From Horticoccus luteus (GTDB lineage Bacteria > Verrucomicrobiota > Verrucomicrobiia > Opitutales > Opitutaceae), in the NCBI RefSeq assembly GCF_019464535.1, contig NZ_CP080507.1:810001-842000 (forward strand): a stretch of DNA of 32,000 nt. Direction: 5' to 3'. Made by a program: the position numbers and the translations under genes. The stretch's first letter is position 1. Each line of letters starts with the position of its first letter. Below the pieces are notes generated by a model that did no database searches, was not told the DNA's origin, and saw only the letters and a list, made by a program, of their open reading frames with translations. Of the stretch, positions 9,730 to 32,000 are shown piece by piece.

Positions 9730-9781
9730 GATGGCGCAGGAGGAGGGGAAGGAGGGAAGAGCAGGCGGCGCCGGAGACGGG

Positions 9782-12120: not shown

Positions 12121-12124
12121 GGCG

Positions 12125-13522: not shown

Positions 13523-13580
13523 AAGGAAAACATCCTACCGCGCGACGGCGTTTGCCAACCGGGAGCGGGCAGGAGGAAAA

Positions 13581-13653
13581 TGGGCCCACAGGGATTTGAA
13601 CCCTGAACCAAAGGATTATGAGTCCTCTGCTCTAACCGTTGAGCTATAGGCCC
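13581..13653 (-). tRNA. tRNA with CAT anticodon (elongator tRNA-Met, or tRNA-Ile2 if lysidinylated); no encoded CCA
   Basis: The reverse complement folds as a cloverleaf: GGGCCTA TA GCTC AACGGTTA GAGC A GAGGA CTCATAA TCCTT TGGTT CAGGG TTCAAAT CCCTG TGGGCCC A (73 nt). The 1:72 pair is G-C and the anticodon stem lacks the three G-C pairs of initiators, so it is not tRNA-fMet. Confidence 0.9.
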
Positions 13654-13834
13654 GAAAATGACGTCTCATCGGGTAGCGCGCAGGGGGCTGGCCGCAAGCC
13701 GGAATCTCGCGCGAGAACGCGCGGCGCGGGCAAATGGGCGGCGTCCTTCCGGGAATTCCGGTGCCCGTCGCGACGGCCATCCTCGGTGCCACACGACGGT
13801 GCGGGAGCGCGGTGTGGCGCCGCTCAACGGGCCG

Positions 13835-14353: not shown

Positions 14354-14368
14354 CGCGAGCGAGCGAAA

Positions 14369-14767
14369 TTACGACTTCGAAACTTCGACGTTTTCGAGGA
14401 GATTGATGCCGTCGCGGCTCACGAGTTTGCCTTCGACGGTGATCGTCTTGCCGCCGGAATTGGCGAGCTCGTCGTTGATGGGTTTGTGTTCGCCGATGAG
14501 AAGATAAACGGTGCCGTCGGCGCTTTTCAGACCGACGGGCAGTCCGCTGGAGATGCACTTGTTGGCGCAATCGGCGTGTTTGGCGCCGTGCGCGCCGTGG
14601 TCGAGGTAGCAAGCCATGTCGAGGACTTCACCCGTGACGGTGACGTGGCTGCCGCTTTGGGCCGCAGAGGGAGCGTCACCCGCGCGAGCGGCGAGCGGGA
14701 GGAAGGCGAGCGCGGCACCGGCGGTGAGCAGTGAAAAGAAACGAGCGAGCGGGCGAAATGAATTCAT
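14369..14767 (-). CDS. Small secreted Cys/His-rich protein of unknown function
   Basis: Signal peptide MNSFRPLARFFSLLTAGAALAFLPLAARA begins at the ATG at 14767 (the track ORF extends to 14836). The mature part carries the cluster DMACYLDHGAHGAKHADCANKC, followed by a beta-rich segment. Confidence 0.55.
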   Translation of the reverse strand: MNSFRPLARFFSLLTAGAALAFLPLAARAGDAPSAAQSGSHVTVTGEVLDMACYLDHGAHGAKHADCANKCISSGLPVGLKSADGTVYLLIGEHKPINDELANSGGKTITVEGKLVSRDGINLLENVEVSKS

Positions 14768-14994
14768 CGGTGGGAGGGTTGAGGTTTGAAGGGTTCGAAA
14801 CGCTTTAACGGTGTGACTCCAACCGAGGAATTGCAAACCGGAGCACGGTAACGGGAAGCGATGGGCTGGTCGCGCGGTGCGAGGGGAGGAGTGCGCGCGG
14901 GAAAAGACGGTGCGGCGGGACGGGCGAAGCGATGGCGCGAGAGAAGCGGTGCGGGCGGCGCTGCGCGGGACGCGCCGATGGGGCGCGGGCGTGT

Positions 14995-17589
14995 TTACGC
15001 GGCAGCGATTTTTTCGCGGAGATGCGTGTAGCGTTGTTTCGATTCGTTGTTGCGCACGGCCATGGCGTAAGCGGCGGGCTCGCCGACGATGAAAACCTTT
15101 TTCCGTCCGCGCGTGATGGCGGTGTAGATGAGGTTTCGCTGCAGCATCATGAAATGCGCTTTGAGGAGCGGGATGATGACGACGGGGTATTCGCTGCCTT
15201 GGGATTTGTGAATGCTGATGGCGTAAGCGAGGGCGAGCGCGCCGAGGTCGCCGCGGTCAAACGTGTGAGGGTCGCCATCGAAGTCGGCTTCGAGCGTGCT
15301 CTTCTCAGGGTGAACGGCAGTGACGGTGCCGATGTCGCCGTTGAAAAGGTTTTTGTCGTAGTTGTTGCGCAGTTGGATGACTTTGTCGCCGGGGCGGAAG
15401 GCGGTGGAGCCGGCGCGGAGCGTGGCGCGAGGACCGGAGCGATCCCACGCAAGTTTGGAGCCCCCGCCGACCTCGGGGTTGAGCGCGGCCTGGAGCTGGG
15501 CGTTGAGATTGGCGACGCCCGCGGTGCCTTTGTGCATCGGTGCGAGCACCTGCACGTCGGCGACGGGATGCGGCCATTTGAGTTTGCGCGGGACGAACTC
15601 GGTGCAGAGCGCGAGGACTTTGCGCACGCAGTCCTCGGCATCGGTCGCGGCGATGAAGTTGAGGTCGGAAAACACCTGGGCGTCGGCCACGTCGTTGGTC
15701 GCGGGCGGGAGCGCGGGATTGCCGTCGTTGATGGCGTGGGCGGTCGTGACGATCTGGCTTTGGCCTTGCTGGCGGAAAATGACGGAGAGGCGCGTGGTCG
15801 TGATGTGGAGCGAAGGCTGGTGGGCGGCGACAGTTTCGGACGCGGCGGCGGCGATAAGGTCTTTGAGGACGTTGCCGGCGCCGACGCTGGGGAGTTGATC
15901 GGTGTCGCCCACGAGCAGGAGGTGCGCGCGGGAGGGGATGGCTTGGAGCAGCGAGGCGGCGAGGCGGGTGTCGAGCATCGAGGCCTCGTCGAGAATGAGG
16001 AAATCGGTGGCGAGGGGCGCGGATTCGTTGGCGACGAAACCGCCTTTGGCGGCGTCGTATTTGAGGAGGCGGTGAATGGTGGAGGCGAAGCCGCCGGTGG
16101 TTTCGGCGAGGCGTTGCGCGGCGCGGCCGGTGGGCGCGGCGAGGTGCACGCGGACTTTCTTGGCTTTGAGAATTTCGACGAGCGCGCGAAGGATGGAGGT
16201 CTTGCCGGTGCCGGGTCCGCCGGTGAGAATGGTAACCTTATGCGCGAGCGCGTTTTTGAGCGCGAGGCGTTGTAAGGGGTGGAAGACGAAGCCGGCTTTT
16301 TTCTCGGCCCACTCGACAGCGGCGTCGATTTTGATCGCGGGAAGCGCGCTGCCGGTGCGGGTGAGGCGGAGCACGGCGGCGGCGATCCGCGTTTCGGCGC
16401 GGTCGTTGTGCGGGAGTTGGAGAAAGGCGGCGGCAGGGAGGTCGGCGGGGGGAGTGCCGGAGGGGGAAGCGGAAACGTCGGACAGTGGAGCGACGGGGGT
16501 GCGGGGTGAGGGCGCCCCGCCCACAACGGGCGTGGGGGCGAGTGTGCCGCCGACGGCAGGGAAGTGCGCGACGAGGGATTTGTTTTGGACGAGGGCGGCG
16601 AGCCGCGCTTCGACGAAACGCGATTCCGTTTCGAGGAGGTTGGCGGTGTAGGCGACGAGTTCGTCGTGCGGGAAACCTGTGTGGCCTTCCTCCTGCAGCG
16701 TTTCGAGGGCGTAGAGGATGCCGCCGTCGACGCGGGGCGCGGCGTCGTTGGCGAAGCCGACGTTGATGGCGATGCGGTCAGCGGTCTTAAAGCCGATGCC
16801 GTCGATCTCGCGGGCGACGCGGTAGGGTTCGGTGGTGAGGATTTGCTTCGCGGCGGCGCCGTAGCGGCCGACGAGCTTCACGCACTGGCTGGGGGTGACG
16901 CCGTAGGTCTGGAGGAAAATGTAGAGTTCGCGCTCGATGCGTTTTTCGTCCCACGCCTGCTTGATGGCGGTGGCGCGTTTCGGCCCGATGCCGGCGACGT
17001 GGCGCAGGCGGCCGGAATCTTCGCTGAGCACGCGAAAGGTCTCGGTGCCGAGCGCGTCGACGATTTTGTTGGCGTAGACTTTGCCGATGCCGGGCACGAG
17101 GCCGCTGCCGAGGTATTTGCGGATGCCGTAGACGCTGGACGGCAGTTCGGACTTGAACGCGGCGACTTTGAACTGGGCGCCGTGCTGGGCGTGGCGCGAC
17201 CATTCGCCGGAGAGGTGAAGGGTTTCGCCGCATTCGACGCCGGGGAGGGGGCCGACGATGGTGACCGGTTCGGGGCGCGCCGATTTGGCGTCGGCCGCGG
17301 CGGCGGGCGGAAGGTCGGGGCGAAATTCCGCGATGGTGTAGTGGTTCTCCTCGTTGAAAAAGATGATGCGTTCGAGGACGCCGGTGAGCGTCGCCGAAGA
17401 GGAAGCGGAAGTGGAAGCAGCCACGTTGGGAGGAGTGAGCACGGGCTCGGCGCAGGATGCAAACCGGCGCTGCAGCGGGAAGAAATCATTGACCGCAGGT
17501 GCGCGGACCCGGTGGCGCGCGCGGGCGGTGAACATTCGCGCGATTCGCGGTTGCGCGACGCGGCCGCCGTGACCAAGTCGGAGGCGCAT
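14995..17589 (-). CDS. recD2: RecD2-like SF1B ATP-dependent DNA helicase
   Basis: N-terminal VLERIIFFNEENHYTIAEF, a helix-hairpin-helix region (GIGPKRA, IDGIGFKTAD), Walker A LTGGPGTGKTS, Walker B FLILDEASMLD, LLLVGDTDQLPSVGAGNV, and C-terminal AISIHKSQGSEYP. The start is uncertain: 17589 leaves only 11 bp to the divergent gene, and ATG 17535 or a downstream GTG are alternatives. Confidence 0.85.
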   Translation of the reverse strand: MRLRLGHGGRVAQPRIARMFTARARHRVRAPAVNDFFPLQRRFASCAEPVLTPPNVAASTSASSSATLTGVLERIIFFNEENHYTIAEFRPDLPPAAAADAKSARPEPVTIVGPLPGVECGETLHLSGEWSRHAQHGAQFKVAAFKSELPSSVYGIRKYLGSGLVPGIGKVYANKIVDALGTETFRVLSEDSGRLRHVAGIGPKRATAIKQAWDEKRIERELYIFLQTYGVTPSQCVKLVGRYGAAAKQILTTEPYRVAREIDGIGFKTADRIAINVGFANDAAPRVDGGILYALETLQEEGHTGFPHDELVAYTANLLETESRFVEARLAALVQNKSLVAHFPAVGGTLAPTPVVGGAPSPRTPVAPLSDVSASPSGTPPADLPAAAFLQLPHNDRAETRIAAAVLRLTRTGSALPAIKIDAAVEWAEKKAGFVFHPLQRLALKNALAHKVTILTGGPGTGKTSILRALVEILKAKKVRVHLAAPTGRAAQRLAETTGGFASTIHRLLKYDAAKGGFVANESAPLATDFLILDEASMLDTRLAASLLQAIPSRAHLLLVGDTDQLPSVGAGNVLKDLIAAAASETVAAHQPSLHITTTRLSVIFRQQGQSQIVTTAHAINDGNPALPPATNDVADAQVFSDLNFIAATDAEDCVRKVLALCTEFVPRKLKWPHPVADVQVLAPMHKGTAGVANLNAQLQAALNPEVGGGSKLAWDRSGPRATLRAGSTAFRPGDKVIQLRNNYDKNLFNGDIGTVTAVHPEKSTLEADFDGDPHTFDRGDLGALALAYAISIHKSQGSEYPVVIIPLLKAHFMMLQRNLIYTAITRGRKKVFIVGEPAAYAMAVRNNESKQRYTHLREKIAAA

Positions 17590-19519: not shown

Positions 19520-20293
19520 CTACGAAATTTTGTGCCAGATGCCTCGCTCTCCCGCCTTCTGTGCGAGTAGGCCGCGGTCTCGCAAAACCTGAAGTTGTTG
19601 GCGGAGTTTGTCGCGAACATGACGATTTTCCGGGTGAAGCGCCGATAGCTCTGGTTCGAAGCCGTAGACATCGTCGTTGCGAAAGATAGCCGGGAGTTGC
19701 TCGACGAAGCGAAGAACGTCGAGCGTCCATCCGCGGCTGTCGGGAGGCAAGTTCGCGAGCCGCGCAATGCGGGCGTATTTCTCCCGAACCAGAGTTCGTT
19801 CGATTTCTGCGCCATCGACGACGAGGTCGATTTTTGCCGCTTGCGGGATCAGGCTAATGTTAAGCGTGTAGCCGACCCATTCGTGACGGCGGGCGGAAGA
19901 ACTCAGTGGCCTCCGAGGCGAGACTACAGCGGGCGAAATCGCGAACCGGGGAATGAGCAGAAGATTGCGAACGAACCACGCGGGCAGTTCGTAATTCAAA
20001 AGGAAAAAATTCGGTGTGCGGTTGTGGAGAATGGCTTCGACCATCCGCTGATAATTTGAGCCCAGGATAGTGCGTCCGATTTTGGTTTTCTGGCTTTTGA
20101 GCTGATAGCGCTCGACGCAAAGCGGACAAAGAAAGTCGGTGACGTGTGTGTTAGCGGGCGTTTGCTCAATGATGTCACTGGTGCAGGCGCAACAGAAGAG
20201 GTTGGAGGCTCCCCACGGCTCGGTAATGCGCCGGGCGATTTGCGAGGCGCTTTTGTAACCGGCGCCGTGATGCACCGGAAGCTGGAGGTCCAT
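19520..20293 (-). CDS. DpnI-family (Dam-replacing family) type IIM methyl-directed restriction endonuclease
   Basis: Collinear with S. pneumoniae DpnI as I recall it. Shared blocks: YKSxSQxAR..TE.W, a 4-Cys pair (CCAC ... CPLC), D-F-x-C...LKS, PNFFLLNY, RRPLSSSARRHEWVGY, SRGWTLDVL, and C-terminal winged-helix DKLRQQLQVLRDRGLL. I prefer the start at MDLQL (20293); the track start is 20311. Confidence 0.8.
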   Translation of the reverse strand: MDLQLPVHHGAGYKSASQIARRITEPWGASNLFCCACTSDIIEQTPANTHVTDFLCPLCVERYQLKSQKTKIGRTILGSNYQRMVEAILHNRTPNFFLLNYELPAWFVRNLLLIPRFAISPAVVSPRRPLSSSARRHEWVGYTLNISLIPQAAKIDLVVDGAEIERTLVREKYARIARLANLPPDSRGWTLDVLRFVEQLPAIFRNDDVYGFEPELSALHPENRHVRDKLRQQLQVLRDRGLLAQKAGERGIWHKIS

Positions 20294-20689
20294 CGTGGGC
20301 GAGTAGAGCAACCACCGGACCGCTCATCAAATCGATTTTACGCGATAGATTTCCGTTTCGCACCGAACGATGTGGGTCGTCTGCCGCTTGGTGCCATCTG
20401 ACGCGCGAGCCCATGCTTTCTGCAGAGTCACGTCGACGGTCGTGTGCACTACGCTCGCCGCCTGCGTGTGAGCGCTCGAAAGGAAGACGAACTTCGATTC
20501 ATGGAAAATACAGTGGTGCGGCGGGCTGGGGCGGCGTGTCGGCGCGGTGGCTGCGAATCCGGCCGAGGCGCTGGCGTGGTATGAGAAGGCGAGCACGCCG
20601 ACATCACACAGGCGAAGGCGACGGCGGATCGCGTGACGCCACGGGCACAGGCTGCCGCGGCGGAGAAGAAATAGGCGCGGCGGCGGCGC

Positions 20690-20754: not shown

Positions 20755-23232
20755 TCAGGCTTTGGCGTCTTCCGGAATGCGCATCGAGTAGAAGCTGCGG
20801 TAGGCAAAGATCAGCGCGATCAGGAAGAAGATCACGCCGATGGCGGTCTTCACGTGCTGGTCTTTCATCGTCACCGCGATTTCCACGGCGAGCAGGCCGA
20901 AGAGCGTGGTGAACTTGATGACGGGGTTCATCGCGACGGAGGAGGTGTCCTTGAACGGATCGCCCACAGTATCGCCAACGACGGTGGCGGCGTGGAGGTC
21001 GGTGCCTTTCTGCCGGAGCTCGACCTCGACGATCTTCTTGGCGTTGTCCCACGCGCCGCCGGCGTTGGCCATGAAGATGGCTTGGAAGAGGCCGAAGAAT
21101 GCGATGCCGATGAGGTAGCCAATGAAGAAGTAGGCATTGAAGAAGGGCAGCGCCAACGCGAAGCAGAAGACGACGATGAAGATGTTCCACATGCCCTTCT
21201 GCGCGTAGACAGTGCAGATGCGGACGACTTCCTTGGAGTCTTTGGCGGACGCGGTCGTTGAATCGAGCTTGATGTGCTTTTTGATATAGACGACCGCGCT
21301 GTAGGCTCCCGTGACAACGGCCTGAATCGACGCGCCGGTGAACCAATAGATGACGGCGCCTCCCATGATGAGGCCGAGGATGATCTCCGGCTGCACGATC
21401 GAGAGGGCGGCCACCACTTCCTTGAACGGACCGGCGAGACCGGAGGCGAGTTGCGCCTCGTAGAGTTTCTGCAGGAGCATGATGATGCCGAACACCATCG
21501 TGGTCGCACCGACGACGGCGGTGCCGATCAAGACGGGCTTGGCGGTGGCTTTGAACGTGTTGCCCGCACCATCGCCCTTCTCGAGCTGGTATTTGGCGTT
21601 TTCGAAGTCGGGCTGGAAACCGAAGTCGCGTTCGATCTCGGCGGCGATGCCGGGCTTGGCTTCGATCTGGGAAAGTTCGTAGACGGATTGGGCGTTATCG
21701 GTGACGGGGCCGTAGCTATCGACGGCGATGGTGACGGGGCCCATGCCAAGGAAGCCGAAGGCTACGAGTCCGAAGGCGAAGATCGGGGCGGCGAAGAGGA
21801 ACTTGGCGGGCATCAGCGCGAGGAGCGCCGGGTTCTGGGAGAAGTAGTAAGACGCGGCCATCAGCAGCATGATGACGAGGCCCATCCAGAACGCGGAGAA
21901 ATTGCCCGCGACAAGACCCGACAGGATGTTGAGCGAGGCTCCGCCGTGCTGGGAGCAGTTGGTGACTTCTTTGACGTGGCGGCTGTTGGTGCTGACGAAC
22001 ACCTTGGTGAATTCCGGGATCAACGCGCCGGCCACGGTCCCGCAACTGATGATGACTGACAGCACCCACCAGAGGGCGGGATTAACGGTTTCTCCGCCGA
22101 CGGTCTGGTGCGCCAGAAGGAAATAGGAGGCGAGGAACGTGATGCCGATGGAGACGGCCGAAGTGATCCACACGAGATGAGTCAGTGGCGCCTCGAAATC
22201 AAAGTCCTTCAAGCGGCCGTATTTGGCGCGCGAGAGGCCTTGGTTGAGAAAATAGGAAACGAGCGACGTGACGATCATCAGGGCGCGCATGACAAACAGC
22301 CACACGATGAGGACGGCGCAAAGTTCGGCGCTCTCGGCGAGAGCGAGGGCGAGGAAGGCGATGAGGGCGACGCCGGTCACCCCGTAGGTCTCGAAACCAT
22401 CCGCGGTGGGCCCGACGGAATCGCCGGCGTTGTCGCCGGTGCAGTCGGCGATAACGCCGGGGTTTTTCGGGTCGTCCTCGGGGAGCTTGAAGACGATCTT
22501 CATGAGGTCGGAACCGATGTCGGCGATCTTCGTGAAAATGCCGCCGCAGATGCGGAGGACGGACGCGCCGAGGGACTCACCGATGGCGAAACCGATGAAG
22601 CAGGGACCGACGAGTTCCCGCGGCAGGAACACGAGGATGCAGATCATGAAGAACAGCTCGACGCACACCAGCAGCAGACCGACGCTCATGCCGGAGCGGA
22701 GCGGGATGAAGAGGGTATTGAGCGGGTTGCCCTTGAGGGCGGAAAAGGCGGTGCGTGAATTCGCGACCGTGTTGATGCGGATGCCGAACCACGCGACGCC
22801 GTAGGACCCGAGAATGCCGAGGACCGAGGCAAGGAGGATCACGCCCACGTTCAGCGCGGAGTTATGCCCCAAGAAGCCGAAGTAGTAAACCATGCACGCC
22901 CCGATCAGCACCCAGAGGATCGCGAGGAACTTGCCTTGGGTGAACAGGTAAGTTTTGCAGGTTTCCCAAATGGTATGCGAAACGCTGGCCATGGAGGCAT
23001 GGACCGCCAGCGCCTTTGTCTGCTTATATTGAATCAGGCCGAAAATCGCGCCCACTATACAGAGCGCGATGCCGATATACATTAGCGTGACGCCGTTCAC
23101 GCCGCCGAGTCCGTCGAAGCGGACCTGGGTGAGGTCCGGGATGTGGATATCGGCTTCGCTCGCGCGAACCAGCGAAGGGGCAACGACGGCCAGCAGGCCA
23201 GCGACGCCCGTTTTCAGGGTCAGTTTGGTCAT
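20755..23232 (-). CDS. hppA: Membrane-integral proton-pumping pyrophosphatase (H+-PPase), probably the K+-independent type
   Basis: Motifs GGIFTKIADIGSDLMKIV..PEDDPKNPGVIADCTGDNAGDSVGPTADGFETYGV, GNTFKATAKP, GGAWDNAKK and GDTVGDPFKDTSSVAMNPVIKF, with many TM helices. I prefer the start at ATG 23232 (MTKLTLKTGVAGLLAVVAPSLV). The track extension to 23433 reads as non-coding. Confidence 0.9.
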   Translation of the reverse strand: MTKLTLKTGVAGLLAVVAPSLVRASEADIHIPDLTQVRFDGLGGVNGVTLMYIGIALCIVGAIFGLIQYKQTKALAVHASMASVSHTIWETCKTYLFTQGKFLAILWVLIGACMVYYFGFLGHNSALNVGVILLASVLGILGSYGVAWFGIRINTVANSRTAFSALKGNPLNTLFIPLRSGMSVGLLLVCVELFFMICILVFLPRELVGPCFIGFAIGESLGASVLRICGGIFTKIADIGSDLMKIVFKLPEDDPKNPGVIADCTGDNAGDSVGPTADGFETYGVTGVALIAFLALALAESAELCAVLIVWLFVMRALMIVTSLVSYFLNQGLSRAKYGRLKDFDFEAPLTHLVWITSAVSIGITFLASYFLLAHQTVGGETVNPALWWVLSVIISCGTVAGALIPEFTKVFVSTNSRHVKEVTNCSQHGGASLNILSGLVAGNFSAFWMGLVIMLLMAASYYFSQNPALLALMPAKFLFAAPIFAFGLVAFGFLGMGPVTIAVDSYGPVTDNAQSVYELSQIEAKPGIAAEIERDFGFQPDFENAKYQLEKGDGAGNTFKATAKPVLIGTAVVGATTMVFGIIMLLQKLYEAQLASGLAGPFKEVVAALSIVQPEIILGLIMGGAVIYWFTGASIQAVVTGAYSAVVYIKKHIKLDSTTASAKDSKEVVRICTVYAQKGMWNIFIVVFCFALALPFFNAYFFIGYLIGIAFFGLFQAIFMANAGGAWDNAKKIVEVELRQKGTDLHAATVVGDTVGDPFKDTSSVAMNPVIKFTTLFGLLAVEIAVTMKDQHVKTAIGVIFFLIALIFAYRSFYSMRIPEDAKA

Positions 23233-23617
23233 AGGGGAGGGGTTGCGCGTGGTTTTAGGTGGTGAGAGCGAGGCCGCGAGCCAATTCTGCGCAGCCAATC
23301 TAATAGGCCGCAGGAGGCGAAGCGGTTGCGACGCCGGGCGCCGGGGGGCGATGCAAAAAATTAATCGCTGGTAGTGGGAACACCGACAAAGACTTGGGAT
23401 TATTCCCGGTTTTAACGGTGAGGTGCAAACCACTTTAATGTTGCGGGGATTACCCTATGGAGTAGGCCCATTGTCCGCCCGCCCGGTCTTTTGAGCCGTC
23501 CGGCGCATCACATGCTTTGTTTTGATTTTGCTTGGGAGAACTCCCCCTGCCGGTTGGCCCGTTGGCCCGCCGAGTGACCCGCTTTTAGCATCAGACACTT
23601 TTCAAACGCGTTCCATC

Positions 23618-26600
23618 ATGAGCACCCTCGTCCAGCGTATTATTCGAGCAATCGGCTTTGCAGTCCTGATGTCCGGCACATGGGCCGCCGCGGCGGCCCC
23701 GGCGAATTCCTTGGTAGGATCGTGGCTGATGGGCGACGCCAGCTCGCCCGAGTCGGCTGTGATCACTTTTCTGCCCAACGGCACATATTATTTCGCGGGC
23801 GACGCGAGCCCCGGTTCGGGCGACAAGCCGGGGATGGAACGAGGTGGCTACACGTGGAATGCGACGACCGGCCAGTTCACCGCCATCGCGGCGGGTGCTT
23901 TGAGTGATACGAATGGCGACGCCGGCATCTCCGGCGCCGGTTCGGACTCGGATTCCGTCATTCTGACCCTGGGCGCGGACGGCAACACGCTGACGGCGAC
24001 GCCCCAGCACGACGACCCGGTCACGCTCACCCGCATCGCAGATGCGAACCAAGCACTGGTCGGCACTTGGATATATGGCACGCCCGGCGCGTTGGGCTCC
24101 GGCGCGGTGACGTTTCTGGCCAACGGCTATTATTTTCTCGCGAACGACGGCGATTCTGACGCGACCGGCTGGGCCGGCATGGAACGCGGCACTTACGCGA
24201 TCAATGGCGGCCAGGTCGTGCCTTCTGTCATCACCGACACCAACGGCGACCGCGGCATCGGCGGCGAGGGGGCGATCGCCTTCTCGCTCAACGGCGATAC
24301 GCTGACCGTGACGACGAGCGATGGCACCCGTGATCTGGTGCGGGCGAACGCAGCCACCGCGGCAGTGCCCGCCATCACCACGCAGCCGGCTTCTCTCAAT
24401 GTAGTCACAGGCTCGAGCGTGACGCTGAACGTCGTCGCCAGCAGCTCGTCAGCCGTCACCTACCAATGGCGCCGCGACGGCGTGGCGATTTCCGGCGCGA
24501 CGCTCTCGACTCTCACGCTGGGCACCGTGCATCGCGCCGACGCGGACAACTACGATGTGGTGGTCACGAATGCGGTCGGGAGCAACACTTCGAGCCTCGC
24601 GCATTTGTCCGTCGCCCCCTTGAGCTATCCGCAGTCATTGGCGATTGACCCGACGTTCGCGCCGAATCCGCTGACCATCTCGACGAGGGTGTATGCCTCG
24701 GCCAAACTGCCGAACGGGCAATGGATGATCGGCGGAGATTTCGTGCAGGTGGGCGCGGCGAGCCGGCCGGGTGTGGCGCGACTCAATGCCGATTTCACCC
24801 TCGACCAGACGTTTACCCCGATCGTGGTCAACGGTGCCGTGCAGGCGATTGTCGCGGCGGCGGACGGGACGGTTTACGTCGGCGGCGAATTCACGCGCGT
24901 CAATGGTCTCGGTCGCCCGGGTTTGGCGCGGCTGACGACCACCCAGGCGTTCGATACGTCGTGGGGTCCGCAGGATGCGCCCAGTGCGCTGTCGATCGTG
25001 AGTGCGTTGGCGTTGCAGGCCGACGGGAAGCTGTTGGTGGCGCGGATGAGCTTTGCCGGGGGAACCGTGCCGGCTGTGCCGACGACCGCGGTTTTGCGGC
25101 GGCTCAAGAGCGACGGCACAATCGACACGACTTTTGCGAGCAACATCGTGCTCAACGGCGGCCGCATCTACAGCATCCTGCCGGAAGCGGGTGGTTCCGT
25201 GGTAATCGGCGGTGCATTTTCTTCGGTGAGCGGCACGGGCCGCAATGGCTTGGCGCGCCTGACCAATGCAGGCGCGTTTGATCCGAGTTTTGGAGGCAAC
25301 ACGGCCAACACAGGCGGCGTGTTCACGGTGTCGCGCCTCGCCGACGGACGCTATTTGGCCGGCGGTCAGTTCACGAATATTGACGGCGTGGCCCGCAACA
25401 AAATCGCGGTCTATTCGAGCGCGGGTGTACTGGATACGTCGTTCGTGCCCGCGGCGGGCGTCACGAATGGGCAGATTTATGCGGCCACGGAATTGAGCGA
25501 CCATCGGATCGTGGCCGGCGGAAGTTTTACGAGCTATGCGGGGCAGGCTACCAACGGCTTGATCAGATTCACGACCGCGGGAGCCATCGACCAAGCTTAC
25601 ACGGTGGCGGGTGCCGCCCCGACCGCGTTTACCTCGACCACGGCCGGCGCGAATTTGTGCGCCTACACGTTGGCGAACGATGACGTGGCGTTCTTTGGCA
25701 TTTTCCAGAGCATGCTCAATCAACGTCGCGTGGGCGTCGCCGTCGTGAAACTCGATGGCACCCTGGGGGCGGCGACGGCCGGGCCGATTTACCGCGGAGC
25801 TTATACGAACAACGCGTTTCTCGAAACGACCGGCCAAGTGACGATTCTCGGCTCGGTCGACACGCTCGGGGCTGCGAGCAATCTGATGCAACTCGCCCGC
25901 GTGAATGCCGATGGCACCGCGGATCTTTCCCTCACGCCGGGCGGCGGGTTTACCCAGAACGGGCTGTCGGCCTTCGGCATCTACAAAGCGGTGCGTCACG
26001 GGGACGGCCGCATTACCGCCGTGGGCGACGTGACGGCGTATGGCAACGTGAGTGGCACGCGCCTGCTTCAAATCAAAGCGGACGGGACGCCGGATGCGAA
26101 TTTCAACAGCGGCACGGGACCGACCACCTACCTGCTGCAGATGGCGCCATTGAGCGGCGGCGGGACGTTGCTCTACGGCTTCGGGGCCAACTTCAAATAT
26201 AACAACCAGAGCGCAAACGCCTTGGTCCGCCTCAACGCCGACGGTTCACGCGACCCGAATTTTGCGGACGGCGTTTTTCTCAATGGCACGTCCGGCGCGG
26301 GCGTCTCGGCGGCGGTCGAGGACCCCGCGACGGGACAGATTTACGCGGCCGGCACGTTCACGAGCTATCAAGGCGCACCGGCACCGGGCTTGGTGCGCTT
26401 GAATCGCGACGGCAGCCGCGATCCGAACTTCGCGCCGGGCACGGGCGCCAGCGGCGGCGCGGTCACCGGATTGCAGATTCTGGACGAAGGGCGTCTGCTG
26501 ATTTCCGGTTCGTTCACCAGTTTCGACGGCACCCCCGTCAATCGGCTGGCGATCGTCGATCGCGATGGGCGGCGCCAACAAAATTTCAACCCCGGCACGA

Positions 26601-29600
26601 TCATCAGCGGGCCGGTGAGCCAGGTCATCGTGCAGGAAGATGGCCGGCTGATTGTGGCGGGTGATTTCAATGCGGGGCTTGCCGTTCGGCTGACGAGCGA
26701 CGGCAATTACGATGGGTCTTTCAGTTTGACGGGCGATTTGTTTACGCCGGGCGGCAACACCACGATGCGCTTGTTGCTGGCCGACGACGGCAAAGTTTAC
26801 GGGCATAACATGCTCCTCAGTGCGAACGGCGCGCCGACGCAGTCGCTGGTGCGTTTCAATTCGGTGGTGCTGCCCAGCATCCAGACGCAGCCGACCAGTG
26901 TTGTGGCGGCCCCGGGCGGCTACGCGCAATTGCAGGTGAACGTTTCCTGGCAAGGCACGGCCATGCCGACGTATCAATGGCGCCACAACGGACAGGCGAT
27001 CGCGGGCGCCACGCAGGCGTATTACTTCATCGGCAACGTGCAGAGCGCCGACGCGGGCACCTACGACGTCGTGGTGAGCCTGCCGGACGGATCGGTGACG
27101 AGCAATGGCGCGCAGGTGATTCTGGGCACCGCGGGTAATGTTTACGCGCGCGATTACAGTTTCGTGCGGCCGGAATTCCGGCGCACCTCACTGGCCGGCC
27201 GCATCGTGGCGGCGCCGGGTGGCGGCTATTTCGCCTCGTTCAGCAACGGCCAATACGTGACGGGCGCCGACAATAAACGGATTGGCGCCGTGATTAAGTT
27301 GCATGCAGACGGCTCGCTCGACGACTCGTTCAAACCGGGATATACCCTGTCGGACGCCTGGGCGATGATTCCTCTCAGCGACGGCAGTGTGATCGTGGGC
27401 GGCGTGAGCAGCGATGAGAACAACGAGACCGGGCAAACGGTCTTCCGCGTGCTGCACCTCAACGCCGACGGTTCGCGCGACTACAACTTCTACTCGCCGG
27501 CCTTCACGGCGGTGCCGCGGTTCATGACGCGGCAGAGCGACGGCAAAATTCTCGTCGCCGGCTCCTACGGCAGTTACACGCCGAACGGCGGGCTTTCCGG
27601 GCTCGTGCGCCTGCAGGCCAACGGCAATACTGATTACAGTTTCCAAGCACCGGTGTTCGGCGCCAATGATGCCGCCAATCCCATCTTCGCGCCGATCGCG
27701 GTGGATAGCGCGGGCCGGATCGTCATCGCGGGCAATTTCAGCTCGGTCAACGGCGTGGCCCGCCCGGCCGTGGCGCGCTTGAACAGCGACGGTTCTCTCG
27801 ACACGAGCTTCGCGCCGAGTGGCTTCACCTTCACCGGTCCGCAGATTCGTGGCGTCGCGGTGCAGGGCCAGGGCGCCAACGCGGGCAAAGTGCTCGTCGC
27901 CGGCGGCACGCTGCAGGTGAACGGCGTCACGCGCGCCGTCATCCGGCTCAACGTCGATGGCTCGCTCGATACGTCGCTCGCGGCGATTCTGCCTGCGGCC
28001 GTGGGCGCGGATCCTTCGCTCGGCCAACGCGCACGGCTGATCAATTTGCTGCCCGACGATCGCTTCACCGTGCTCTCCACCCGCGTCGCGCGTTTCACGG
28101 CGGACGGTCTGCCGGACGCGACGTATGCGGCACCTGCGCTATCGGGTGAAGCCTATTGGATGACGACCGCCACCGACGGCTCGGTCGTGATCGCGCCGGA
28201 ATTCGGAACCGCTTTTAGTGGTTCGACGCTCGCGGCTCCGGTGCGGTTCACGCCGGCCGGACTGCTCGATACCTCGTTTGTGGCGCCGAAAGTCCAGGCG
28301 GAAGTTTACCCGTCGGACGTCGCGGTGCAGGCGGACGGCCGCACGCTGGTGTGGGGCAATTTCGATACGGTCAACACCACGGCCCGAAGCGGCATGGTGC
28401 GGCTCAACGTCGACGGTTCGATCGACACGACCTTTAATCTCTCCGGCGTGCCCAATCTCTACAGCATCACCAAAGCCACGGTGCTGCCGGACGGCCATAT
28501 TCTCGCGGGCACGAAGCTCGGCGTCTATCAAACCAACCTCGGCAGCGGCTTGGCCCGTTTTGCCGCCAATGGCGCGGTGGATGGTTCGTTCACTCTCGAT
28601 GCGAAGGCCAACGCCTCGTCGTTCGAAGCGCTGGCGGACGGCAGCATTTTGACTTGGAGCCTCTCGCCGAGCGACCTGTTGCAGGGCGGACTTTTCTTCA
28701 AACGTCTCACCGCGAGCGGGGCGATCGATGCCACCTTCACCGGTTTGGGCTCGACTTCGTTTGGACGCGTTTACCGCGATGCGAACAACAACATCACCTC
28801 GCTCGTGATGGGCCAGTTTGCGATCCTCGCGCACGACGCCACCGGCCGCGCCATCGCTGTCGCCACCACCCCCAACGGCACCTACGCCGCCAACGCGACT
28901 TCGCTCAACGTCACGCTTCTGCGACTCAACACGGACGGGACGATCGACTCGACGTTCAACGCCCCGTCGCTCGCGTGGAACACCACCGTCGGGTTCACAA
29001 GTTCGATCAAGGATCCGGTCACCGGCCAGACCAATCAGTGGTCGTTGATCTCGGTCGGCGGTTCACCCTTCTCCGGTGTGACGCCGCAGGCGGATGGCAG
29101 CATCCTGGTGTATGGCGCTTTCAAAAATTTGGGCGGAATCGCAGCGCCGGGTATCGCGCGCCTGACCTCCACCGGCGCCATCGATACGGGTTTCTCCGTG
29201 GGCGCCGGTGCGGAACTGCGCCAGCGCTGGGACCGTTCGCCGTTGGTGCAACATCTCGACGTGAGTGCCGATGGTAAAATCTGGGTGACGGGCACCTTCG
29301 ATACCTTCCAGGGATTCGCCTCGCCCGGTCTCGCGCGGTTGAACGCCAACGGTTCGCTCGACATCGGCTTCGTCTCCGGCGTGCGTTATCAACAGTATCT
29401 TGGCAACGGCACCAAGGTCGCTTTCGGACCGACGGGTGAAGTGTTTGTGGCCGGCACCTATTTCCCGACCTACACGCAATCGACCGACGTCTTGCCGTCG
29501 GCCCTCCTGCGCCTGCTGCCGAACGCGGCACCGGTCGTCACGAGTGTGAGCCCGAGTCCTGTTCAGGCGGGGCAAAGCTTCACCGTGACCGGGACAGGAT

Positions 29601-32000
29601 TGACCAACGTTTCTTCGGTGACGCTCAACGGCGCGGCCGTCAGTTACTCCAACGTCTCGCCGACGAGCTTGACGGTTTATCTTCCGGCCAACGCGACCAG
29701 CGGGACTTTGGTCGTGCAAACCGCGAACGGTTCGGTGACGTGGAATTTGCAAGTATCGGCGGGTATTCCGGTCATCTCCTCTCAACCGTCACACGCGATC
29801 GTCGCGCCGGGCGCCAACGCGGTGCTGTCGATCGCGTCGCCCACCACTGGCGTGAGTTATCAGTGGTATCGCAACGGCAGTCTGCTCGCGGGCGCCACCG
29901 CGCCGTCGTTGTTCCTCCAGAACGTCGGTGCCGCGAATGTGGGCGATTATTCCGCCAAAGTGACGAGCGCCGGCGGCACGGTTTCAAGTGTGTCCGCAGC
30001 GGTGCGGGTGACGTCGGGCGAGGGTTGGACGTTCCGCAACCCGCAGCCGTCGTTTGCGCCGTATTACTCGGTGGCCTTTGGCGCGGGTCGTTACGTTGCC
30101 GTGGGCGGGAGTGGCGTGATCGTCACCTCGACCGACGGCACCTCGTGGTCGGTCGCCGCGCATTTCTCGGATTTCATTCTCGATGTGGCGTATCACGGCA
30201 CGCAGTTCGTCGCGGTCGGCAGTTACGGCAACGTCTTCACGTCCAATGACGGCCTGAGCTGGACGCCGCATTCCGCGGGGATTCCGCAGGAGTTGAACAG
30301 CGTGATTTTCGCCGCCGGCAAATGGATTGCCACCGCCAGCAACGGCCAGGTGGTGACGTCGCCCGATGCGATCACGTGGACGGCGAGTTCCAGCCCGGTC
30401 GGCTTTATCACCGGCCTCAGCGTGGGGCCGAACAATACCGCGATCGCGGTGGGCGACAAAAAATTTCTTACCAGTGCGGATGGTGTGACCTGGACGGCGA
30501 CGTCGATTGCGAATGACGTTGATTTTGCCGACGTGGAATACGGCGCCGGGGTCTACCTCGCGAGCGGAGCGGATGCGATTTATCGCTCCACCGACGGTGT
30601 CACTTGGGCGCCCACGACGATTGGCGAAACCACGACCGGCCTTTATTGGAACCGCCTGGTTTTCACGGGCAGCGGCTTCATCGTGGTCGGCGCGGAAGCG
30701 CAAAGTTCCTCGCTGGGCTACATGATGACCTCGGTCGATGGTTTGGTGTGGACCGCGCGCACCGCGGAGCCGCTGCCGGGCCTGCAAGGCGTTACCAGCG
30801 GCCCCAATGGGGTGGTGGCGGTCGGCGTATCCGGCGCGCTGCTGCAATCGACCGATAACGGCGTGACGTGGACGCGGCGTTACTCGGGCTTCACGTTTCC
30901 GGGCAGCCTTTACAGCGTCGCGAACGGCACACCGGGAACCCTGGTGGTCGGCGACTACGGCAACGCGTGGCTCTCGACGACGCTCGGCGTCTGGAATCAG
31001 GTGGGTGGCAATACCGGCGAAAGCCTGCTCTCGGCCATTTATGCGGGCGGACGCTATGTCACGGTGGGCACCGGCGGGTATATTGCCCGTTCCACGTCGG
31101 CCGCGACAGGCACTTGGTCGGCCGCGACCACGGCGCCGGCGGTGAACTACCGCAGCGTGGCCTACGACACCGCGACTTCGACCTACACCGTCGTCGGTGA
31201 CAACGGCACCATCGCCACGTCGCCCGACGCCGCGGTGTGGACCACGCAGTCATCGAACTCCTCGCAATCGTTGCACGGCGTGGCAGCGGGTAATGGCGTG
31301 CGCGTCGCCGTCGGCACCGGTGGCACGATCCTCTATTCGACCAACGGGGGGGCGTGGACCAACGCCTCGTCGCCGGAATCGGGGCTGACCTACGAAGTCG
31401 TGGCGTTCGGGGGCGGCCGCTTCGTGGCGGCTGGTCGCTCGAACCACACCGTGATTATCACGTCAACCGATGGGGCGAACTGGCAGGAAGCCTACACGCC
31501 TTACACCGGGAGCATCCGCGGGCTGGCCTACGCCAACGGCAACTTTATCACCGTCGGCGGCACGTCGACGATTCTCACCTCGCCGGACGGCACGACTTGG
31601 ACGGCGGAGTCGTCGCAATATCCCTGGCTCCTGCGCGGTGTGACCGGCACTCCCTTCGGCTACGTGGTTGTGGGTGATTACGGTGCGATCGCGAGCAAGG
31701 CTTATCCGATCGCCCCAGTCATCACGACTCAGCCCACGGCGCAATCGGCCGATCAGGGTGGCAGCGTGACATTCTCGGTCGATGCGACCGGCCCCGCCAT
31801 TAGTTACCAGTGGTTCAGGAATGGCGCAGCCATCCCGGGCGCGACGTCGTCAACCTATACGATCGCGAGCGTCGGACTCGGCGACTATAATACCTATACG
31901 GTCAGGGCATCAAATACCTATGGCAGCGTAACCAGCACGGCGGCGACGTTGGCCCCGGCTTCGATCATCATCACCGACCAGCCGACGGCCCGCCGGGCGG
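23618..32000 (+). CDS. Giant secreted multi-domain repeat protein (at least 2794 aa, 3' end beyond the window), a putative cell-surface or adhesin-like protein
   Basis: NOT in the supplied ORF track. Frame +2 is open from the TGA at 23492-23494 to base 32000. The first ATG at 23618 gives signal peptide MSTLVQRIIRAIGFAVLMSGTWAAAAAP. My hand translation stays protein-like, with G/C-rich third positions, to the last codon. It resolves into Ig-like, delta-60/DUF5122-like, IPT/TIG and BNR-like modules. Confidence 0.9.
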   Translation, partial: MSTLVQRIIRAIGFAVLMSGTWAAAAAPANSLVGSWLMGDASSPESAVITFLPNGTYYFAGDASPGSGDKPGMERGGYTWNATTGQFTAIAAGALSDTNGDAGISGAGSDSDSVILTLGADGNTLTATPQHDDPVTLTRIADANQALVGTWIYGTPGALGSGAVTFLANGYYFLANDGDSDATGWAGMERGTYAINGGQVVPSVITDTNGDRGIGGEGAIAFSLNGDTLTVTTSDGTRDLVRANAATAAVPAITTQPASLNVVTGSSVTLNVVASSSSAVTYQWRRDGVAISGATLSTLTLGTVHRADADNYDVVVTNAVGSNTSSLAHLSVAPLSYPQSLAIDPTFAPNPLTISTRVYASAKLPNGQWMIGGDFVQVGAASRPGVARLNADFTLDQTFTPIVVNGAVQAIVAAADGTVYVGGEFTRVNGLGRPGLARLTTTQAFDTSWGPQDAPSALSIVSALALQADGKLLVARMSFAGGTVPAVPTTAVLRRLKSDGTIDTTFASNIVLNGGRIYSILPEAGGSVVIGGAFSSVSGTGRNGLARLTNAGAFDPSFGGNTANTGGVFTVSRLADGRYLAGGQFTNIDGVARNKIAVYSSAGVLDTSFVPAAGVTNGQIYAATELSDHRIVAGGSFTSYAGQATNGLIRFTTAGAIDQAYTVAGAAPTAFTSTTAGANLCAYTLANDDVAFFGIFQSMLNQRRVGVAVVKLDGTLGAATAGPIYRGAYTNNAFLETTGQVTILGSVDTLGAASNLMQLARVNADGTADLSLTPGGGFTQNGLSAFGIYKAVRHGDGRITAVGDVTAYGNVSGTRLLQIKADGTPDANFNSGTGPTTYLLQMAPLSGGGTLLYGFGANFKYNNQSANALVRLNADGSRDPNFADGVFLNGTSGAGVSAAVEDPATGQIYAAGTFTSYQGAPAPGLVRLNRDGSRDPNFAPGTGASGGAVTGLQILDEGRLLISGSFTSFDGTPVNRLAIVDRDGRRQQNFNPGTIISGPVSQVIVQEDGRLIVAGDFNAGLAVRLTSDGNYDGSFSLTGDLFTPGGNTTMRLLLADDGKVYGHNMLLSANGAPTQSLVRFNSVVLPSIQTQPTSVVAAPGGYAQLQVNVSWQGTAMPTYQWRHNGQAIAGATQAYYFIGNVQSADAGTYDVVVSLPDGSVTSNGAQVILGTAGNVYARDYSFVRPEFRRTSLAGRIVAAPGGGYFASFSNGQYVTGADNKRIGAVIKLHADGSLDDSFKPGYTLSDAWAMIPLSDGSVIVGGVSSDENNETGQTVFRVLHLNADGSRDYNFYSPAFTAVPRFMTRQSDGKILVAGSYGSYTPNGGLSGLVRLQANGNTDYSFQAPVFGANDAANPIFAPIAVDSAGRIVIAGNFSSVNGVARPAVARLNSDGSLDTSFAPSGFTFTGPQIRGVAVQGQGANAGKVLVAGGTLQVNGVTRAVIRLNVDGSLDTSLAAILPAAVGADPSLGQRARLINLLPDDRFTVLSTRVARFTADGLPDATYAAPALSGEAYWMTTATDGSVVIAPEFGTAFSGSTLAAPVRFTPAGLLDTSFVAPKVQAEVYPSDVAVQADGRTLVWGNFDTVNTTARSGMVRLNVDGSIDTTFNLSGVPNLYSITKATVLPDGHILAGTKLGVYQTNLGSGLARFAANGAVDGSFTLDAKANASSFEALADGSILTWSLSPSDLLQGGLFFKRLTASGAIDATFTGLGSTSFGRVYRDANNNITSLVMGQFAILAHDATGRAIAVATTPNGTYAANATSLNVTLLRLNTDGTIDSTFNAPSLAWNTTVGFTSSIKDPVTGQTNQWSLISVGGSPFSGVTPQADGSILVYGAFKNLGGIAAPGIARLTSTGAIDTGFSVGAGAELRQRWDRSPLVQHLDVSADGKIWVTGTFDTFQGFASPGLARLNANGSLDIGFVSGVRYQQYLGNGTKVAFGPTGEVFVAGTYFPTYTQSTDVLPSALLRLLPNAAPVVTSVSPSPVQAGQSFTVTGTGLTNVSSVTLNGAAVSYSNVSPTSLTVYLPANATSGTLVVQTANGSVTWNLQVSAGIPVISSQPSHAIVAPGANAVLSIASPTTGVSYQWYRNGSLLAGATAPSLFLQNVGAANVGDYSAKVTSAGGTVSSVSAAVRVTSGEGWTFRNPQPSFAPYYSVAFGAGRYVAVGGSGVIVTSTDGTSWSVAAHFSDFILDVAYHGTQFVAVGSYGNVFTSNDGLSWTPHSAGIPQELNSVIFAAGKWIATASNGQVVTSPDAITWTASSSPVGFITGLSVGPNNTAIAVGDKKFLTSADGVTWTATSIANDVDFADVEYGAGVYLASGADAIYRSTDGVTWAPTTIGETTTGLYWNRLVFTGSGFIVVGAEAQSSSLGYMMTSVDGLVWTARTAEPLPGLQGVTSGPNGVVAVGVSGALLQSTDNGVTWTRRYSGFTFPGSLYSVANGTPGTLVVGDYGNAWLSTTLGVWNQVGGNTGESLLSAIYAGGRYVTVGTGGYIARSTSAATGTWSAATTAPAVNYRSVAYDTATSTYTVVGDNGTIATSPDAAVWTTQSSNSSQSLHGVAAGNGVRVAVGTGGTILYSTNGGAWTNASSPESGLTYEVVAFGGGRFVAAGRSNHTVIITSTDGANWQEAYTPYTGSIRGLAYANGNFITVGGTSTILTSPDGTTWTAESSQYPWLLRGVTGTPFGYVVVGDYGAIASKAYPIAPVITTQPTAQSADQGGSVTFSVDATGPAISYQWFRNGAAIPGATSSTYTIASVGLGDYNTYTVRASNTYGSVTSTAATLAPASIIITDQPTARRA
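23711..24346 (+). repeat. Tandem duplication of a ~100-aa N-terminal module (lipocalin-like or beta-barrel guess)
   Basis: Copy A (23711-24043): LVGSWLMGD..AVITFLPNGTYYFAGD..GMERGGYTWN..SDTNGDAGISG..LTLGADGNTLTAT..VTLTRIAD. Copy B (24056-24346): LVGTWIYGT..GAVTFLANGYYFLAND..GMERGTYAING..TDTNGDRGIGG..FSLNGDTLTVTT..DLVRA. Confidence 0.7.
24365..24613 (+). other. Ig-like (I-set-like) domain 1 of the giant protein
   Basis: PAITTQPASLNVVTGSSVTLNVVASSSSAVTYQWRRDGVAISGATLSTLTLGTVHRADADNYDVVVTNAVGSNTSSLAHLSV. It shows the classic xTxQP..V..G..v.L.V...YQW..nG..I.GAT...L....V...D.G.Y.V.V.N..G pattern. Confidence 0.7.
24644..26869 (+). repeat. Repeat block 1: about 14 delta-60 / DUF5122-type beta-propeller repeats (~53 aa, ~160 nt period)
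   Basis: Recurrent anchors include G.ARLNADFTLDQTF (24772), LARLTTTQAFDTSW, LRRLKSDGTIDTTF, LARLTNAGAFDPSF, LARVNADGTADLS, LVRLNADGSRDPNF (26222), LVRLNRDGSRDPNF (26390) and LVRFNS (26845). Each is followed by ..V.A.A.Q.DGk.l.gG.F..v.G..r. The count was made by hand. Confidence 0.7.
26870..27127 (+). other. Ig-like domain 2
   Basis: LPSIQTQPTSVVAAPGGYAQLQVNVSWQGTAMPTYQWRHNGQAIAGATQAYYFIGNVQSADAGTYDVVVSLPDGSVTSNGAQVILG. Confidence 0.7.
27128..29527 (+). repeat. Repeat block 2: about 14 further delta-60 / DUF5122-type repeats (~57 aa, ~170 nt period)
   Basis: Anchors: VIKLHADGSLDDSF (27290), VLHLNADGSRDYNF, LVRLQANGNTDYSF, VARLNSDGSLDTSF, VIRLNVDGSLDTSL, VARFTADGLPDATY, VRFTPAGLLDTSF, MVRLNVDGSIDTTF, LARFAANGAVDGSF, FKRLTASGAIDATF, LLRLNTDGTIDSTF, IARLTSTGAIDTGF, LARLNANGSLDIGF (29330), LLRLLPN (29505). 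Confidence 0.7.
29528..29755 (+). other. IPT/TIG-like domain
   Basis: APVVTSVSPSPVQAGQSFTVTGTGLTNVSSVTLNGAAVSYSNVSPTSLTVYLPANATSGTLVVQTANGSVTWNLQV. It matches the canonical P.I.svsP..g..G..vTi.G.gf......V...G........s...l.v..P....G.v.V pattern. Confidence 0.65.
29765..30010 (+). other. Ig-like domain 3
   Basis: IPVISSQPSHAIVAPGANAVLSIASPTTGVSYQWYRNGSLLAGATAPSLFLQNVGAANVGDYSAKVTSAGGTVSSVSAAVRV. Confidence 0.7.
30011..31714 (+). repeat. About 13 BNR/Ycf48-like beta-propeller blades (~40 aa, ~120 nt period)
   Basis: Recurrent units of the form v.fg.G.fVAVG..G.I.TS.DG..W. The blade motifs seen are TSTDGTSW (30124), TSNDGLSW, TSPDAITW, TSADGVTW, RSTDGVTW, TSVDGLVW, QSTDNGVTW, LSTTLGVW, RSTSAATGTW, TSPDAAVW, YSTNGGAW, TSTDGANW and TSPDGTTW (31577). 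Confidence 0.65.
31715..31957 (+). other. Ig-like domain 4 (a fifth copy begins about 31958 and runs off the window)
   Basis: PVITTQPTAQSADQGGSVTFSVDATGPAISYQWFRNGAAIPGATSSTYTIASVGLGDYNTYTVRASNTYGSVTSTAATLA, then SIIITDQPTARRA starts the next copy. Confidence 0.7.

Follow-up and report, generated by a model that had tools for sequence, protein, structure and literature searches.

The last 8.4 kb of a 32,000-nucleotide stretch of the Horticoccus luteus chromosome (RefSeq assembly GCF_019464535.1, contig NZ_CP080507.1, positions 810,001 to 842,000; the whole stretch is called the window here) raise the question of what they encode. A program-made list of open reading frames (ORFs) offers six long ORFs on the minus strand. 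The initial annotation of the window, made from the sequence and that list, proposed instead a single giant gene on the plus strand, starting at the ATG at 23618 and encoding a secreted protein, and read the minus-strand ORFs as shadow frames. Its observation is confirmed and its interpretation supported. The overall reading is as follows: a real gene of 4,713 codons, an all-β product predicted to carry a Sec-type signal, an inferred binding role, and minus-strand ORFs that are shadows of the gene. We put the probability of this joint reading at about 0.85. H. luteus belongs to the Opitutaceae, Verrucomicrobiota, and its type strain KSB-15 came from orchard soil contaminated with dichlorodiphenyltrichloroethane (DDT), according to the reference list of PMC12193912.

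One open frame and its antisense shadows

Machine translation shows that frame +2 is open from 23495 to the end of the window, with 0 stops in 2,835 codons. No in-frame stop, of the kind that the initial annotation allowed it might have missed by hand, lies in the 2,794 codons from ATG 23618 to position 32000. About 74 stops are expected from the base composition of the region, and the probability of finding none is given by log10 P = -32.7. The longest stop-free run across 200 shuffles was 493 codons, and the other five frames of the region contain 14–126 stops each. The G+C fractions at the three codon positions (GC1, GC2 and GC3) of the plus frame are 0.58, 0.55 and 0.79, and the GC3 of the other recognisable genes of the window is 0.72–0.84. 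The 2,794-residue translation matches, with 100% identity and 100% coverage of the translation, a protein of 4,713 amino acids (aa), here P0001 (QYM79662.1 / WP_220163842.1 / UniRef100_A0A8F9TX53, “putative Ig domain-containing protein [Horticoccus luteus]”), encoded on a contig of 4.32 Mb. The annotated protein begins at the same Met as ATG 23618. That is, the giant gene is already in public annotation (RefSeq), with the same start codon. The lower bound of 2794 codons given by the initial annotation holds for the window and is superseded by the true length, 4,713 codons. From the length of the protein, the stop codon should fall about 5.76 kb past the window end. The DNA of 23400–32000 has no tandem repeats, so nothing points to a collapsed assembly or a recent duplication. 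Because of the codon-position composition, the strong domain matches described below and the 100% match to an annotated RefSeq protein, it is virtually certain that the long frame is one real giant gene with the architecture given here.

All six minus-strand ORFs are present where the initial annotation had placed them, and they encode 231–478 aa. They share one antisense frame, in which codon position 1 pairs with sense position 3, and their composition (GC1 0.75–0.83, GC3 0.57–0.63, about 20% Arg) is the mirror image of that of the plus frame. On GC3, a check set by the initial annotation, the plus frame is thus favoured. Since only 5.7% of the bases at sense position 3 are A, antisense stops, which begin with T, are rare; the antisense frame of the six ORFs holds 14 stops in 8.5 kb. 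The ORFs had been described as rich in Arg, Pro and His. Arg and His are indeed abundant, along with Ala, Gly and Val, but Pro is outside the six commonest residues. A Pfam search of the six gave no match. The long ORFs of the minus strand are shadows that arise from the GC3-rich composition of the giant gene. The contrary proposal, that some or all of them are real genes and the long plus frame a compositional accident, has in its favour that six ORFs of this length do exist, but it is effectively refuted, with a negligible probability, by their low GC3 and high Arg content beside the real genes of the window, by the lack of Pfam matches, by the chance of about 1e-33 that the plus frame would be open, by the hundreds of bits of domain signal in that frame and by the RefSeq annotation of the plus-strand gene.

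Why the ORF list lacks the gene is also clear. By its description, the list omits ORFs that run off an end. The giant frame meets no stop before the window end and so drops out, as had been supposed. Nothing is listed in the frame of the giant gene; the plus-strand ORFs given for the region all belong to frame 1 or 3. The practical point is that an ORF list that drops edge-running frames, combined with high GC3, produces plausible-looking antisense ORFs. Taken at face value, these would lead to the mis-annotation of a quarter of the window, just as the initial annotation had warned.

A further long shadow ORF is found elsewhere in the window, at 14932–16275(+). It has 447 aa, with GC1 0.82 and GC3 0.67, and is antisense to a RecD2-type helicase gene, 14995–17589(-), with GC3 0.82. 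Other long overlapping ORFs in the list, such as 4650–5837(+), opposite the AcrB gene, are probably shadows of the same origin.

Architecture of the giant protein

The mature protein has a mass of about 474 kDa and a pI of about 5.0. It is acidic and all-β, with a single Cys in 4,713 residues, at position 681. Profile searches of the whole protein give abundant matches, as follows: DUF5122 (PF17164), 476.1 bits (cut-off 27, E=2e-146, 18 stretches); TIGR02608, 342.1 bits (cut-off 76.5, E=1e-104, 12 stretches); Ig_3 (PF13927), 121.7 bits (cut-off 30, E=2e-35); and I-set (PF07679), 82.8 bits (cut-off 23.7). The DUF5122/TIGR02608, I-set/Ig_3 and TIG domains predicted in the initial annotation are thus recovered by profile search; the predicted BNR-type block is recovered at the level of fold only, PSII_BNR being below its cut-off. 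A sequence search of the Protein Data Bank (PDB) finds only immunoglobulin (Ig)-like domains of phage tail and decoration proteins, with 9ncf_S and 9c2d_S at E ~1e-34. The features inside the window are collected in Table 1.

Table 1. Features of the giant gene, its surroundings and the related loci. Residue numbers are those of the protein.
Feature	Position	Strand	Evidence
Giant gene, 5′ part, 59% (codons 1–2794 of 4713)	23618..32000	+	0 stops, GC3 0.79, 100% match to P0001
Sec-type signal peptide, residues 1–27	23618..23698	+	Sequence, hydropathy, same Met in RefSeq
Two tandem all-β modules, ~110 aa each, residues 28–140 and 141–250	23699..24367	+	AlphaFold2 model, internal identity
Ig-like domain 1 (I-set/Ig_3), residues 251–338	24368..24631	+	I-set best stretch 251–327; YQWRRDG core at 282
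Delta-60 (DUF5122) block A, residues 353–1082	24674..26863	+	13 repeats by custom repeat profile, segment scan
Ig-like domain 2, residues 1088–1172	26879..27133	+	Pfam “ig” 1094–1161; YQWRHNG core at 1119
Delta-60 block B, residues ~1178–1965, ~14 blades	27149..29512	+	13 repeats at residues 1206–1920
IPT/TIG domain, residues 1972–2039	29531..29734	+	PF01833, 29.5 bits, cut-off 20.9
Ig-like domain 3 (Ig_7/Ig_3), residues 2050–2135	29765..30022	+	PF19081 2058–2132; YQWYRNG core at 2081
Asp-box (BNR/Ycf48-like) tandem β-propeller, 14 blades (7+7), residues 2136–2696	30023..31705	+	AlphaFold2 model, Foldseek
Ig-like domain 4 (Ig_3/Ig_2), residues 2699–2779	31712..31954	+	Ig_3 best stretch 2700–2766; PDB matches 9ncf_S, 9c2d_S
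Ig-like domain 5, start only, cut by window end	31955..32000	+	Ig domain (FQWRKNG core) continues in full-length protein
Six shadow ORFs, not genes	24635–26071, 26246–26986, 27188–28027, 28139–28834, 29063–29785, 29984–30847	-	Composition, no Pfam match
Intergenic region between giant gene and divergent H+-pyrophosphatase gene	23434..23617		H_PPase ORF 20755–23433(-)
Downstream partner genes, related Opitutaceae loci	L001 6250–9384; L002 4378–7557; L003 ~13300–16493; L009 23637–25379		

A custom hidden Markov model of the delta-60 repeat, built from the giant protein itself, finds 26 repeats in the window and 13 more beyond it (39 in all), with successive starts mostly 48–60 residues apart. 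Each delta-60 block thus has 13 clear blades and space for one degenerate blade, or about 14 blades; in block A, a 63-aa gap could hold the degenerate one. The best DUF5122 and TIGR02608 stretches of block B are at residues 1360–1405. This block is the best conserved among relatives; of the longer matches, that to P0005 has the top identity, 50%, and covers 38% of the query. DUF5122 has been modelled as a β-propeller by contact-based modelling, with 2ymu_A as template (PMC8078820). From the repeat counts, the Pfam definition and that published model, we infer that each delta-60 block consists of two 7-bladed propellers.

The Asp-box block was modelled with AlphaFold2 (AF2) from an 11-sequence alignment. 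The model of residues 2136–2700 has a predicted local distance difference test score (pLDDT) of 86.6 and 54 strands forming a 14-blade tandem propeller. The best Foldseek matches are the tandem 7+7 propellers 2ymu, Utp21, Aip1, the GH74 xyloglucanases and PorZ. The block scores 17 bits with PSII_BNR (PF14870; cut-off 27) and 19.4 bits with NF010237 (cut-off 326). Membership in the Ycf48 family is rejected, as both models are below cut-off and the block is a 14-blade tandem rather than a single 7-bladed propeller; the likeness is in blade type only. DUF6242 (PF19755) reaches 35.4 bits over the whole protein, against a cut-off of 29, but no single stretch passes; three sub-segments score 18–28.6 bits.

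The N-terminal double module, just after the signal peptide, consists of two halves that are 38% identical to each other. An AF2 model of residues 28–252, from a nine-sequence alignment, has a pLDDT of 80.5 and a predicted template modelling (TM) score, pTM, of 0.83, and shows two β-barrels, with about eight strands per half. No Pfam or NCBIfam model matches the double module above threshold; Lipocalin_4 (PF13648) gives 17.7 bits, with a cut-off of 22.4. A Foldseek search against the PDB gave nothing below E=1e-3. The one credible fold match is the lipocalin-like periplasmic barrel of ToxS (prob 1.0, target TM-score, TMt, 0.43). The double module seems to be a mobile domain not yet covered by a model; at least seven relatives have it at internal positions (P0008, P0009, P0012, P0017, P0019, P0021 and P0022).

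The protein runs past the window, as the initial annotation had said. According to P0001, the part beyond the window adds another Ig domain, the third of the delta-60 blocks (2880–3615), an Ig domain with its core at 3693, and 11–12 He_PIG domains. He_PIG (PF05345) scores 177.9 bits at residues ~3745–4097 and 82.9 bits in the last 180 residues, both above cut-off. The C-terminal third is made of He_PIG repeats (E=5e-53), with 11–12 copies of a GTP motif and nothing after them. The He_PIG domains, which are of the cadherin/dystroglycan Ig type, form a terminal rod of about 1,000 residues.

Export, location and proposed role

Judged by inspection and a hydropathy profile, the N-terminus, MSTLVQRIIRAIGFAVLMSGTWAAAAAPANS, is laid out in n, h and c regions like a Sec signal peptide. 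Its parts are MSTLVQRIIR / AIGFAVLMSGTW / AAAAA-P; that is, an n-region with two Arg residues, AIGFAVLMSGTW as the hydrophobic core, and then a run of Ala. The Kyte–Doolittle value of residues 8–26 is 1.54, and by inspection the segment has the features of a Sec substrate of signal peptidase I. The textbook signal peptide of the initial annotation is borne out by this layout, by hydropathy and by the RefSeq start. A lipoprotein is rejected: there is no lipobox Cys, given the position of the sole Cys. Hydropathy finds no transmembrane helix in the full-length protein outside the signal peptide, which is the only N-terminal hydrophobic segment. The predicted passage across the inner membrane has good support. 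The word “secreted” in the initial annotation derives from the signal peptide alone, so it stands as far as that membrane and reaches no further.

The C-terminus offers no comparable signal. The protein ends in ...TLVLTITSSVELNGGN, where Pfam and NCBIfam find He_PIG/PKD-like matches only. In the full-length protein, the same two databases give no PEP-CTERM motif, type IX secretion system (T9SS) C-terminal domain, autotransporter barrel or RTX/type I secretion system (T1SS) signal, and there is neither a hydrophobic C-terminal segment nor a terminal aromatic residue. The C-terminus is thus a He_PIG array with no recognised anchor or sorting signal. No catalytic family matches anywhere in the full-length protein, again in Pfam and NCBIfam.

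The proposed mechanism is as follows. After cleavage of the Sec signal, the product would be an acidic all-β giant of the envelope or the exterior. The two lipocalin-like barrels would form its N-terminal tip. The tip would be followed by three delta-60 blocks, each with about 14 blades, and by the Asp-box propeller with its 14 blades, with single Ig-like or TIG domains between them, and the He_PIG rod would come last. Ligands would bind to the propeller faces and to the lipocalin-like tip, with the Ig and He_PIG domains as spacers. Judging from domain content, we somewhat favour a Sec-exported, non-enzymatic, multivalent binding protein, adhesin-like or of a matrix, in the envelope or exterior.

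The strongest competitor is a structural or scaffold role in the periplasm or envelope, where the protein would be retained after export by Sec instead of being displayed on the cell surface or released from it. The N-terminal Sec signal, together with the lack of T1SS, type V secretion system (T5SS), T9SS and PEP-CTERM features and of a C-terminal aromatic residue, speaks for retention. So does the gene neighbourhood: no conserved secretion system flanks the giant gene in the window or its relatives at two loci, L009 and L010, and in all three places the adjoining genes are unrelated housekeeping genes. On the other hand, it is typically on the cell surface or outside the cell that proteins with rods of Ig, He_PIG and TIG domains and propeller arrays of such size are found, and the tails of many relatives (EF-hand/dockerin-like, “FFRLKV”, “EVYELP”) resemble extracellular sorting or docking modules. 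We consider retention unlikely, although it should be taken seriously.

The GH74-like fold of the Asp-box block raises the question of catalysis. If the block acted like a GH74 xyloglucanase and the other domains bound substrate, the protein would be a secreted carbohydrate-active enzyme. Foldseek query TM-scores (TMq) of 0.64–0.69 to 6p2k, 5jwz, 2cn3 and 6p2l and the two predicted 7-bladed propellers, forming a cleft as in GH74, agree with this, and Verrucomicrobiota are noted as polysaccharide degraders (PMC12714770). However, non-enzymatic tandem propellers (Utp21, Aip1, PorZ and 2ymu) match as well or better, identity to GH74 is just 13–15%, and no glycoside hydrolase family matches in Pfam or NCBIfam. 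Further, the only invariant columns across 11 homologous Asp-box blocks are residues of the repeat motif (S, D, G and W), with no active-site-like column in that alignment. An enzyme of this kind is therefore improbable. Far less probable still is that the repeats serve to deliver a toxin at the C-terminus, as in a polymorphic toxin or a contact-dependent effector. Such systems share the general shape of a giant, exported protein made of repeats, but the full-length protein ends in He_PIG repeats and has no toxin, RHS, PT-HINT or immunity-linked module and no RTX or two-partner secretion (TPS) domain.

Several points weigh against the binding-protein proposal and the architecture on which it is built. 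An adhesin-like role is the default reading for all-β repeat giants. Since no signal for export across the outer membrane or for anchoring there is recognised, the periplasm may be where the protein ends up. The GH74-like predicted fold of the Asp-box block leaves a small probability of a catalytic role. The AF2 models cover the Asp-box block and the N-terminal double module, and the propeller fold and 7+7 split of the delta-60 blocks come from repeat counts, the Pfam definition and the published model. Finally, the 3′ end of the gene and everything past the window end are known from the RefSeq protein P0001 alone.

A literature search found nothing on delta-60/DUF5122 function or on this giant protein. 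To the question of how such proteins of 0.5 MDa leave the periplasm and what they bind, the locus adds no handle beyond a possible two-gene cassette of its relatives, considered below.

Neighbours, relatives and known systems

The giant gene is divergent from an H+-pyrophosphatase gene, and the intergenic region presumably holds the promoters of both. A consensus scan of 23300–23800 for promoters (sigma-70-type) and terminators found nothing, and no Shine–Dalgarno motif is visible just upstream of ATG 23618. The H+-pyrophosphatase ORF encodes 892 aa, of which the first 125 precede its Pfam match. Its mechanical GTG start may lie upstream of the true start; if the true start is further in, the intergenic region shared with the giant gene is wider.

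The neighbours in the window are unrelated to the giant gene: the H+-pyrophosphatase, a DpnI-like nuclease, RecD2, a resistance–nodulation–division (RND) efflux operon, a two-component system and genes of sugar metabolism. The nuclease gene, 19520–20311(-), encodes a restriction endonuclease of the DpnI family (Dam-replacing, methyl-directed; E=3e-52). It is in a stretch of lower G+C content, about 0.60 compared with 0.63–0.69 over most of the window, and no adjoining methyltransferase was recognised. The RND operon, 4140–9822(-), encodes an AcrB-type pump, an HlyD-type adaptor and an outer-membrane factor. Beside it are a PepSY protein and a weak β-propeller ORF, and nearby, at 11395–13522(+), are genes for an OmpR-type response regulator and its histidine kinase; the whole region spans 4140–13522.

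Among the candidates scored, at least 1,090 proteins match the giant protein with E<=1e-10, most of them 2,000–4,900 aa long. Where named, they are mostly from Opitutae/Verrucomicrobiota, and many are labelled “uncharacterized delta-60 repeat protein”. They use the same domain vocabulary with the modules shuffled, and the best match other than P0001 itself has 38% identity, with 70% of the query covered. The giant gene is a member of a common, uncharacterised kind of protein in Verrucomicrobiota; a literature search found no experimental characterisation of any delta-60/Ig relative.

The relatives differ mainly at their C-termini. Among the best 120, about 21–25 have a double EF-hand/dockerin-like tail, about 20 a tail of the form “...TNLxxW...FFRLKV”, and four end in “...EVYE.P”. 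About one fifth of the same 120 proteins, including P0004, P0007, P0009–P0012, P0021 and P0024, end in the duplicated EF-hand/dockerin-like motif HSADxNxDGxIxLxELTRVIELYNxRxGTxRTGxYxxxxGTEDGFAPGP, which is absent from the giant protein. The motif matches the EF-hand_5 profile (E=4e-7) and, weakly, dockerin, and has no dedicated Pfam or NCBIfam model.

A contig scan with the C-terminal 1,055 aa yielded eight related loci; H. luteus is not among them. In all four loci where the giant ends in a bare He_PIG array (L001, L002, L003 and L009), the next gene encodes a separate He_PIG/Ig protein with a signal peptide and a tail (Table 1). This partner gene starts 27–44 nt downstream of the giant gene or slightly overlaps its end. 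The partner has 580–1,090 aa, its own signal peptide, about five He_PIG and one or two Ig_3 domains, and a tail either of the “FFRLKV” type or with two “NISTR...EVYELP” domains. P0005, P0034 and P0038 carry tails of these same types on the giant itself, fused to its He_PIG array. The four-for-four partners and the fused tails suggest a two-gene cassette. It is tempting to propose, as a tentative and rather doubtful idea, that the bare-He_PIG giants of Opitutaceae are half of a surface-fibre cassette, whose downstream partner would provide anchoring or sorting in trans. If true, the cassette would reveal an undescribed export or anchoring route for giant proteins of the Planctomycetes–Verrucomicrobia–Chlamydiae (PVC) group. 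A search with the L002 partner as query shows that the partner family is widespread, with no H. luteus entry among the best 120 matches.

Of the known giants, the closest are the delta-60/Ig proteins of Opitutales and other Verrucomicrobiota, such as P0003 (4,530 aa, metagenome-assembled genome GCA_947085165.1) and P0021 and P0024 of Actomonas aquatica. They share with the H. luteus protein the Ig_3/I-set domains, the 14-blade DUF5122 blocks, the Asp-box tandem propeller, the lipocalin-like double module and the He_PIG arrays. P0003, the closest architectural relative, stops right after the He_PIG array at the equivalent position (...LPSLQING compared with ...SSVELNGGN). The relatives differ from the H. 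luteus protein in that the order of modules is shuffled and in that many carry C-terminal tails absent from P0001 and P0003.

Very large genes are frequent in PVC phyla, including Verrucomicrobiota (bioRxiv 10.1101/2023.11.21.568195). That study focuses on Omnitrophota proteins of >30,000 aa encoded near secretion-system loci, whereas the H. luteus protein is 4,713 aa long and the window shows no secretion-system genes beside its gene.

The tandem 7+7 propellers, namely GH74, the T9SS surface component PorZ (5m11) and Utp21/Aip1, resemble the predicted fold of residues 2136–2696, with TMq 0.56–0.75 and prob 1.0. Identity to them is 8–15%, with no family-level sequence match and no catalytic signature seen among the conserved columns, and in the giant protein, unlike in these proteins, the tandem propeller is one module among many.

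Lastly, Ig-rod adhesins of the LapA, SiiE and Bap type are very large, acidic and Cys-poor, with long Ig- or cadherin-like rods, ligand-binding modules and no catalytic domain. They use a T1SS: an RTX signal stands at the C-terminus, and the N-terminus lacks a Sec peptide. The H. luteus protein is like them in size, acidity, scarcity of Cys, Ig rods and lack of a recognisable catalytic domain. In contrast to them, it has a Sec peptide and no RTX repeats, and it consists mostly of β-propellers.

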